A stretch of DNA of 64,000 nt, taken from the sequence record PQ093904.1, one strand, 5' to 3'. The stretch comes from Pseudomonas phage phi9_PA9. The notes under the pieces are model-generated. The model did no database searches and was not told the DNA's origin. It saw nothing but the letters and a program-made list of their open reading frames with translations. Positions 46,290 to 46,778 of this stretch are shown piece after piece (the stretch's first letter is position 1; each line of letters starts with the position of its first letter). The position numbers were made by a program, and so were the translations under genes.

Positions 46290-46778
46290 ATGGCTGAATT
46301 TATTATAGGTAAAGATATATTCAATGTACCTGGTGATCTTTATCTAATCACTGTTAATGTCGTTGGCGTCATGGGCGCTGGTTTAGCTAAATCGTTTAAA
46401 GAAAAGTATCCTGAACTTTTTGAAAGATACAAACACGATTGCAAAAAGAGAATTATTACTATTGGTAATCCGGTTATTTACAAAGCATCCGATGGCAAAC
46501 GTTTTATGATGTTTCCCACTAAGGATAATTGGCGGAACCCATCTCAAATTAGTTTCATTGAACGTGGACTAGAGTGGATGATGGAGAACGTATCGGATTC
46601 TGCGGAAAATGAAGAAGACTGTATTCATCCAGATTGGAAAATTATCATACCACCATTAGGGTGTGCTAATGGTGGATTAGATTTCTCTGATGTTAGAAGC
46701 ATCGTTGAAGACTGGTCTAATCACATGCCTAACCAGATTGTGGTTGTTTATCCACCTTGGATGGATTCATCGGTTTAA
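46290..46778 (+). CDS. macrodomain protein of the TARG1/OARD1/DarG-like clade (ADP-ribose binding/hydrolase)
   Basis: ITVNVVGVMGAGLAKSF (Nx(n)GxGxA phosphate-binding loop), FPTKDNW and PPLGCANGGLDFSDV (second glycine-rich loop), C-terminal IVVVYPP; order and spacing mirror TARG1 HCISQDCRMGAGIA ... MPRIGCGLDRL ... ITVYTL. Confidence 0.65.
   Translation: MAEFIIGKDIFNVPGDLYLITVNVVGVMGAGLAKSFKEKYPELFERYKHDCKKRIITIGNPVIYKASDGKRFMMFPTKDNWRNPSQISFIERGLEWMMENVSDSAENEEDCIHPDWKIIIPPLGCANGGLDFSDVRSIVEDWSNHMPNQIVVVYPPWMDSSV

Follow-up and report, generated by a model that had tools for sequence, protein, structure and literature searches.

The DNA analyzed in this study, a stretch of 64,000 nucleotides referred to as the window, belongs to a phiKZ-like Pseudomonas jumbo phage (Phikzvirus) and encodes a small stand-alone macrodomain protein. 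This locus raises the question of what such a protein removes ADP-ribose from, and in defense against which host system. A preliminary description had proposed an ORF at 46290-46778 as a phage macrodomain on the basis of four sequence motifs. An ATG-initiated ORF of 162 aa was indeed read from the window sequence at this position on the plus strand, and all four motifs are located within it, at residues 22 (VNVVGVMGAGLA), 75 (FPTKDNW), 121 (PPLGCANGGLDFSDV), and 151 (VVVYPP). This ORF can be regarded as genuine and a chance ORF as ruled out, because it matches the Pfam Macro family, PHROG 335, and DarG, and is conserved in 44 Phikzvirus records. Taken together, its sequence and the published work on its closest relative indicate that the protein is very probably AdfM, a nucleus-imported ADP-ribosyl-thymine DNA glycohydrolase that erases the marks set by DarT2. 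This function has already been published (April 2026) for a 98%-identical protein, to which the window adds just another allele. The only part not already published concerns stand-alone homologues outside the nucleus-forming phages.

Table 1. Positions of features in the window and the observations on which they are based.
Feature	Position	Strand	Basis
picA 3' part (PhiKZ gp69), C-terminal 339 of 557 aa, cut by window start	2..1021	+	339-codon open frame
gp102.1 homologue ORF	45683-45808		KD19 2.23, clear transmembrane-grade segment
gp103 homologue ORF	45817-46209		KD19 2.78, clear transmembrane-grade segment
14-bp perfect stem-loop between gp103 and adfM	46229..46264	+	RNA fold
Shine-Dalgarno GAAGGAG, 8 nt 5' of adfM ATG	46275..46281	+	read from sequence
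adfM (PhiKZ gp104 orthologue)	46290..46778	+	ORF, 159/162 aa identity, DarG matches, invariant N23/K78/W81
9-bp GC-rich stem-loop (GCCTTCCCT/AGGGAAGGC) then TTTAT, 5 nt 3' of adfM stop	46783..46804	+	RNA fold, sequence

Orthology to PhiKZ gp104 and published work on AdfM

The ORF aligns to PHIKZ104 (phiKZ 107517-108005), which is annotated as 'macro domain-containing protein'. At the protein level it is 98.1% identical to PhiKZ gp104, the comparison sequence being the translation of the gp104 gene fragment printed in the methods of PMC13309987, and nucleotide identity is 96.9%. The sole amino acid differences are S137T, V139I, and M158I. All three are conservative and fall in the segment of residues 113-162, outside both the active site and the import surface; residues 77-95, to which this surface has been mapped in PhiKZ, are identical. 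The region around the gene is colinear with phiKZ 106227-108118, covering gp101 to gp104, and the gene order gp101-gp102-gp102.1-gp103-gp104 agrees with that of phiKZ and PhiPA3. Region 45000-48500 matches 44 Phikzvirus records, e.g. KTN4, OMKO1, SL2, and PA7, at 95-99% nucleotide identity, and the adfM product is conserved in 44 Phikzvirus records at 95-99% identity or more. By sequence and synteny, the window gene is thus assigned as the orthologue of PhiKZ gp104.

[quoted passage not shown] (Cell Rep 2026; PMC13309987). P. aeruginosa DarT2 ADP-ribosylates the second T of TNTC, and purified gp104 strips the ADP-ribose; the N23A exchange lowers this activity on a DarT2-modified oligonucleotide, and DarT2 toxicity in E. 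coli is fully rescued by gp104 (PMC13309987). Activity and the role against DarTG2 have been shown for both PhiKZ gp104 and PhiPA3 gp108, and the PhiKZ, PhiPA3, and Asesino proteins localize to the phage nucleus when fused to GFP (PMC13309987). On two cloned DarTG2 systems the titre of Cas13-selected PhiKZ deletion mutants dropped by 3 and 6 logs, and it also dropped on two clinical DarTG2 strains, while it was unchanged on 7 of 9 susceptible clinical strains, lacking DarT (PMC13309987). DNA from infections with the deletion mutants carried more ADP-ribose. DNA packaging was the main block: filled capsids with tails made up 1% in the mutant vs 65% in the wild type, and empty capsids were found in mutant infections, in which DNA replication was down only 4-fold and transcription was unchanged (PMC13309987).

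[quoted passage not shown] The PhiKZ-specific recognition surface of gp104 comprises residues 77-95, and a chimera with residues 113-162 stalls at PicA (PMC11087766). Plaquing was reduced when nuclear AdfM was lowered by means of PicA Q297K and nuclear DarT2 was raised at the same time (PMC13309987).

From the near-identity of the two proteins we infer that activity, rescue, import, and phenotype transfer from the PhiKZ protein to the window allele. Host DarT2 toxins attach ADP-ribose to thymine within the TNTC motifs of phage DNA that is single-stranded. AdfM made by the phage would be recognized via a surface including residues 77-95 and carried by PicA into the proteinaceous phage nucleus, where its DarG-type active site would hydrolyze the thymine-ADP-ribose bond. 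In this site, K78, as the counterpart of DarG K80, would be catalytic, N23 would position the substrate, and W81 would correspond to W83. With the marks removed, the phage genome could still be replicated and, most importantly, packaged. AdfM would be purely an eraser, consisting of the macrodomain only, with neither a DarT-binding half nor a toxin partner. Nothing in the sequence was found to speak against this assignment.

The 3' part of picA is located in the same window about 45 kb 5' of adfM. Positions 1-2838 of the window align with phiKZ 60260-63097 at 96.7%, gp69 being encoded at phiKZ 59607-61280. Downstream of this region, the surroundings of phiKZ gp70.1 (window ~2838-2950) gave no alignment. 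Window 2950-4167 aligns to phiKZ 63275-64492 and window 4160-6000 to phiKZ 65390-67230, and the phiKZ segment containing gp72 (gp72 64486-65436; NC_004629 64493-65389) appears to be missing at window ~4160-4167. In phiKZ, gp72 separates gp71 from gp73, both of which are pieces of the RNA polymerase beta subunit.

Relation to DarG and alternative activities

The Pfam Macro family (PF01661) was matched with 30 bits (gathering threshold 22, E 5.6e-7), residues 21-138 aligning to profile positions 3-117 of 118. PHROG 335, labelled 'phosphatase', was matched with an E-value of 2.8e-43. In a single-sequence search of the PDB the best solved relative was the M. tuberculosis DarG macrodomain 5M3I (E 8.3e-25), with an alignment spanning nearly the whole protein (149 of 162 residues), and the T. 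aquaticus DarG macrodomain 5M31/5M3E scored 3.3e-19; these three entries are DarG macrodomains according to their primary paper (PMC5179494). The PADLOC DarG model (E 1.1e-38) and the NCBIfam model antitoxin_DarG NF048014 (E 1.3e-39) align to residues 9-157, the latter with 136 bits, which is below its curated equivalog cutoff of 250. Only the N-terminal half of the DarG models is covered (model positions 7-149 of 338). Thus, the protein is DarG reduced to its macrodomain half, with the C-terminal half that binds DarT missing. A full DarG antitoxin was rejected for want of both the C-terminal domain and darT.

A search with a profile combining seven phage homologues with two DarG macrodomains, in which DarG scores are therefore circular, ranked TARG1/OARD1 (4J5R/4J5S/4J5Q and others, E ~9e-16) first among the solved families that follow DarG and 7OMU. 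The latter, the third-best solved relative, is a 406-aa 'macro domain-containing protein' on which a literature search found nothing. Poa1p-like phosphatase structures (6lft) followed among the more distant macrodomains with an E-value of 1e-6 in the profile search. In the single-sequence search neither TARG1 nor 6lft was matched at E<=10. The proposed membership in the TARG1/OARD1/DarG clade is borne out by these relationships, and sequence comparison clearly points to DarG as its nearest member. AlphaFold2 prediction from the single sequence gave no usable model (pLDDT 35, pTM 0.24), and the fold is therefore assigned from sequence homology to solved DarG structures and from the published AF3 model of AdfM, which has an RMSD of 0.72 A to 5M3E over 107 residues (PMC13309987).

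Nine sequences were aligned, comprising the window protein, six other phage homologues, and two DarG macrodomains. Within this alignment, N23, V25, G29, G31, A33, K78, W81, G124, G128, and V135 are invariant. K78 aligns to the catalytic lysine of Taq DarG, K80, which corresponds to K84 in TARG1; N23 aligns to N22 and W81 to W83. In Taq DarG, whose macrodomain suffices as antitoxin, K80A is inactive and N22A, affecting the second most important residue, is strongly impaired; W83 has been proposed to stack on the ADP-ribosylated thymine and is replaced by Ala in TARG1 (PMC5179494). Of the catalytic Lys/Asp pair originally predicted for the window protein, the lysine is confirmed as invariant K78, whereas the aspartate D131 varies across the family, with H in PhiPA3, P in Taq DarG, and K in EaH1, and is also unconserved in Goslar. 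According to the alignment, the DarG-specific signature is N/K/W, and a Lys/Asp pair would be only half right.

Relative to bacterial DarG macrodomains, the window protein contains an acidic insertion (SDSAENEEDCIHPDW, window 46593-46637, residues ~102-116), which within the alignment is common only to the PhiKZ-type, PhiPA3, and Goslar proteins. It sits just past the mapped import region 77-95, and a role of the insertion in nuclear targeting would be pure speculation.

Two other activities have to be weighed against that of AdfM. A TARG1-like protein de-ADP-ribosylase would act on Glu/Asp of phage or host proteins, with DNA as a side substrate, and would either counter protein-targeting host ARTs or regulate a phage ART. 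We consider this very unlikely. K78 matches TARG1 K84 and D131 occupies the position of TARG1 D125, but this aspartate is not conserved in PhiPA3, Goslar, EaH1, and Taq DarG, and W81 is DarG-like at a position where TARG1 has Ala. The rank of TARG1 as the next closest solved family was obtained with the profile, whereas the single protein sequence retrieves DarG at 8e-25 and not TARG1. Furthermore, no phage ART was found among the four upstream and six downstream genes, and the phenotype of the PhiKZ mutants is confined to DarTG2 hosts, with 7 of 9 clinical strains, lacking DarT, being unaffected (PMC13309987).

An ADP-ribose-1''-phosphate phosphatase or O-acetyl-ADP-ribose deacetylase, serving RNA repair (Tpt1/KptA) or the destruction of immune signals, was likewise rejected as very unlikely; DNA activity and a DarTG2-specific phenotype have been directly demonstrated for gp104 (PMC13309987). 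It is suggested by the 'phosphatase' label of PHROG 335 and by many GenBank records reading 'Appr-1-p processing', but such annotations are generic macrodomain labels that were inherited and do not derive from an assay. The match to the Poa1p-like structure 6lft lies more than 50 orders of magnitude below DarG in the same profile search, in which DarG scores are circular, and is absent from the single-sequence search that retrieves DarG. Surveys of jumbo phages tie Macro domains to RNA repair (PMC7824862), yet neither KptA/Tpt1 nor an RNA ligase was found near the gene in this region of the window. The protein is moreover concentrated in the phage nucleus, apart from cytoplasmic signals, which argues against signal degradation. 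Both activities would be formally possible as side activities of AdfM and are without support.

Removal of ADP-ribose from DarT-modified DNA by a stand-alone eraser, as had been anticipated for the window gene, has been shown for its 98.1%-identical PhiKZ counterpart (PMC13309987). The further suggestions of the preliminary description, reversal of protein-targeting ARTs and degradation of ADPr-derived signals, found no support.

Genomic context of adfM

Neither the four genes preceding adfM nor the six following it gave a significant Pfam match or a PADLOC match, and no ART or DarT was detected among them, in agreement with the earlier statement that an ADP-ribosyltransferase partner is not adjacent. 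A DarG match was likewise absent in the downstream ORFs.

The gene is flanked by two stem-loops, both found by direct folding. The upstream one, for which a 61-nt segment (46215-46275) containing it is predicted to fold with -22 kcal/mol, looks like a terminator or RNA-processing hairpin. The downstream one is probably a transcription terminator. This arrangement suggests that adfM may form an insulated transcription unit. A scan with a simple T-run terminator pattern gave three hits, neither flanking hairpin being among them. Sigma-70 promoter predictions around adfM were not in excess (8 sites vs 9.0 +/- 3.2 in shuffled sequence), which carries little weight, as phiKZ relies on RNA polymerases of its own.

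As previously described, adfM is associated with a cluster of genes for small, putatively membrane-bound proteins, but it is located inside this cluster and not at its head, since the strongest hydrophobic segments are encoded upstream. The gp103 and gp102.1 homologues look like true membrane anchors. The homologues of gp106, gp106.1, gp107, and gp108 (46902-48747) have weaker terminal hydrophobic segments with KD19 values of 1.35-1.71. The small ORFs of this run (45683-46209 and 46902-48747) each encode a single terminal hydrophobic segment and lack a Pfam or PADLOC match. Paralogy among them was considered and no family is claimed, the best all-against-all BLASTP match being gp106/gp107 with an E-value of 0.02.

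Downstream of adfM, PhiKZ gp105 (148 aa) is absent from the window, with the junction at 46883-46891. In phiKZ (NC_004629) the corresponding segment of about 472 bp (108119-108590) is flanked by two copies of GTAAATAGG, each just 5' of a start codon, of which the window retains one. The extra segment is present in 20 of the 25 Phikzvirus records listed, and the other 5 are colinear with the window. The gp105 segment thus looks like a cassette subject to presence/absence polymorphism. PhiKZ is viable after deletions taking gp102.1, gp103, and gp105 together with AdfM (PMC13309987), and hence the region is dispensable.

Stand-alone homologues and comparison with known systems

In a tblastn search of 50,697 phage records, 272 contained homologues, most of them from jumbo phages that infect Pseudomonas, Erwinia, Salmonella, Serratia, and Klebsiella. 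Phages other than chimalliviruses also carry homologues of this stand-alone type, with a length of about 145-150 aa. Among these are phiEco32 gp37 (2974-3414 of the locus analyzed), which at 41% identity is closer to PhiKZ AdfM than is Goslar AdfM and adjoins the phage sigma factor, and gp114 of Listeria phage LIS04 (LIS04_114, 2992-3444 of the locus analyzed), which adjoins DNA polymerase A. The straboviral Proteus phage vB_PmiM_Pm5461 (NC_028762) contains an intact DarG-type macrodomain ORF of 144 aa without annotation (locus 2995-3429, plus strand); in this record gp204 on the opposite strand and the short fragment gp205 are annotated over it. The Proteus ORF is probably mis-annotated. Streptomyces phage Quantum gp264 (2938-3393 of the locus analyzed) consists of a 151-aa macrodomain only and is labelled 'ADP-ribosyltransferase', which, judged by this domain content, is a mislabel.

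The phiEco32, Listeria, and Quantum proteins, which are part of the alignment, retain N/K/W. With 36% identity, Mtb DarG is closer to PhiKZ AdfM than is Goslar AdfM (31%), which hints at several acquisitions. Because homologues with N/K/W occur in phages without a nucleus, the AdfM-type macrodomain may represent a horizontally exchanged pan-phage module against DarTG2 and not an adaptation of nucleus-forming phages; we put this forward tentatively, as a proposal whose chances fall slightly short of even. The phiEco32-like, Proteus, Listeria, and Streptomyces phages are not mentioned in the AdfM paper (PMC13309987), and a literature search found no paper in which the phiEco32, Proteus, Listeria, or Quantum homologues were assayed as anti-DarT factors.

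AdfM shows the phage nucleus to be a leaky shield, in need of an imported DNA-repair-like eraser to withstand DarTG2. It also influences how therapeutic phiKZ-like phages fare in host range when clinical P. aeruginosa isolates carry DarTG2. Public annotations for this family read 'phosphatase', 'Appr-1-p processing enzyme', or 'hypothetical protein'; in most of the Phikzvirus records listed, 'hypothetical protein' or 'phosphatase' could be replaced by 'AdfM, ADP-ribosyl-DNA glycohydrolase'.

The closest known system is the AdfM group itself, comprising PhiKZ gp104, PhiPA3 gp108, Goslar gp83, and Asesino gp217 (PMC13309987), of which the window gene is another allele. The loci differ in that gp105 directly follows gp104 in PhiKZ and is lacking in the window phage.

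DarG of the DarTG2 systems of T. aquaticus and M. tuberculosis possesses a homologous macrodomain with 30-36% identity to the window protein. Both share the counterparts of K80, N22, and W83 as well as a diphosphate loop of the GxGxGG type, and the reaction of DarG is that of AdfM, removal of ADP-ribose from thymine in single-stranded DNA. In contrast to the 162-aa window protein, DarG has a C-terminal DarT-binding half, resulting in a protein of about 330-340 aa, and is encoded adjacent to darT, whereas AdfM is phage-encoded without a darT neighbor and imported into the phage nucleus. Furthermore, AdfM carries an acidic insertion of 13-15 residues (~residues 102-116), which DarG lacks.

Human TARG1/OARD1 (C6orf130; PDB 4J5S/4J5R/4J5Q) belongs to the same macrodomain subclade as AdfM. 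Its K84 corresponds to K78 in AdfM, and the Asp at the position of TARG1 D125 is also present in the window protein. TARG1 acts on Glu-linked protein ADP-ribose and on O-acetyl-ADP-ribose, and has Ala where DarG and AdfM carry the Trp proposed to stack on thymine.

The strategy of AdfM, neutralization of DarTG by an orphan antitoxin-like eraser or mimic, is shared by AdfN, AdfA, and AdfB. AdfN is an orphan NADAR antitoxin of T4-like phages directed against DarTG1 (PMC11825919). It has the NADAR fold and targets guanine-ADPr set by DarT1, whereas AdfM has the macro fold and targets thymine-ADPr set by DarT2.
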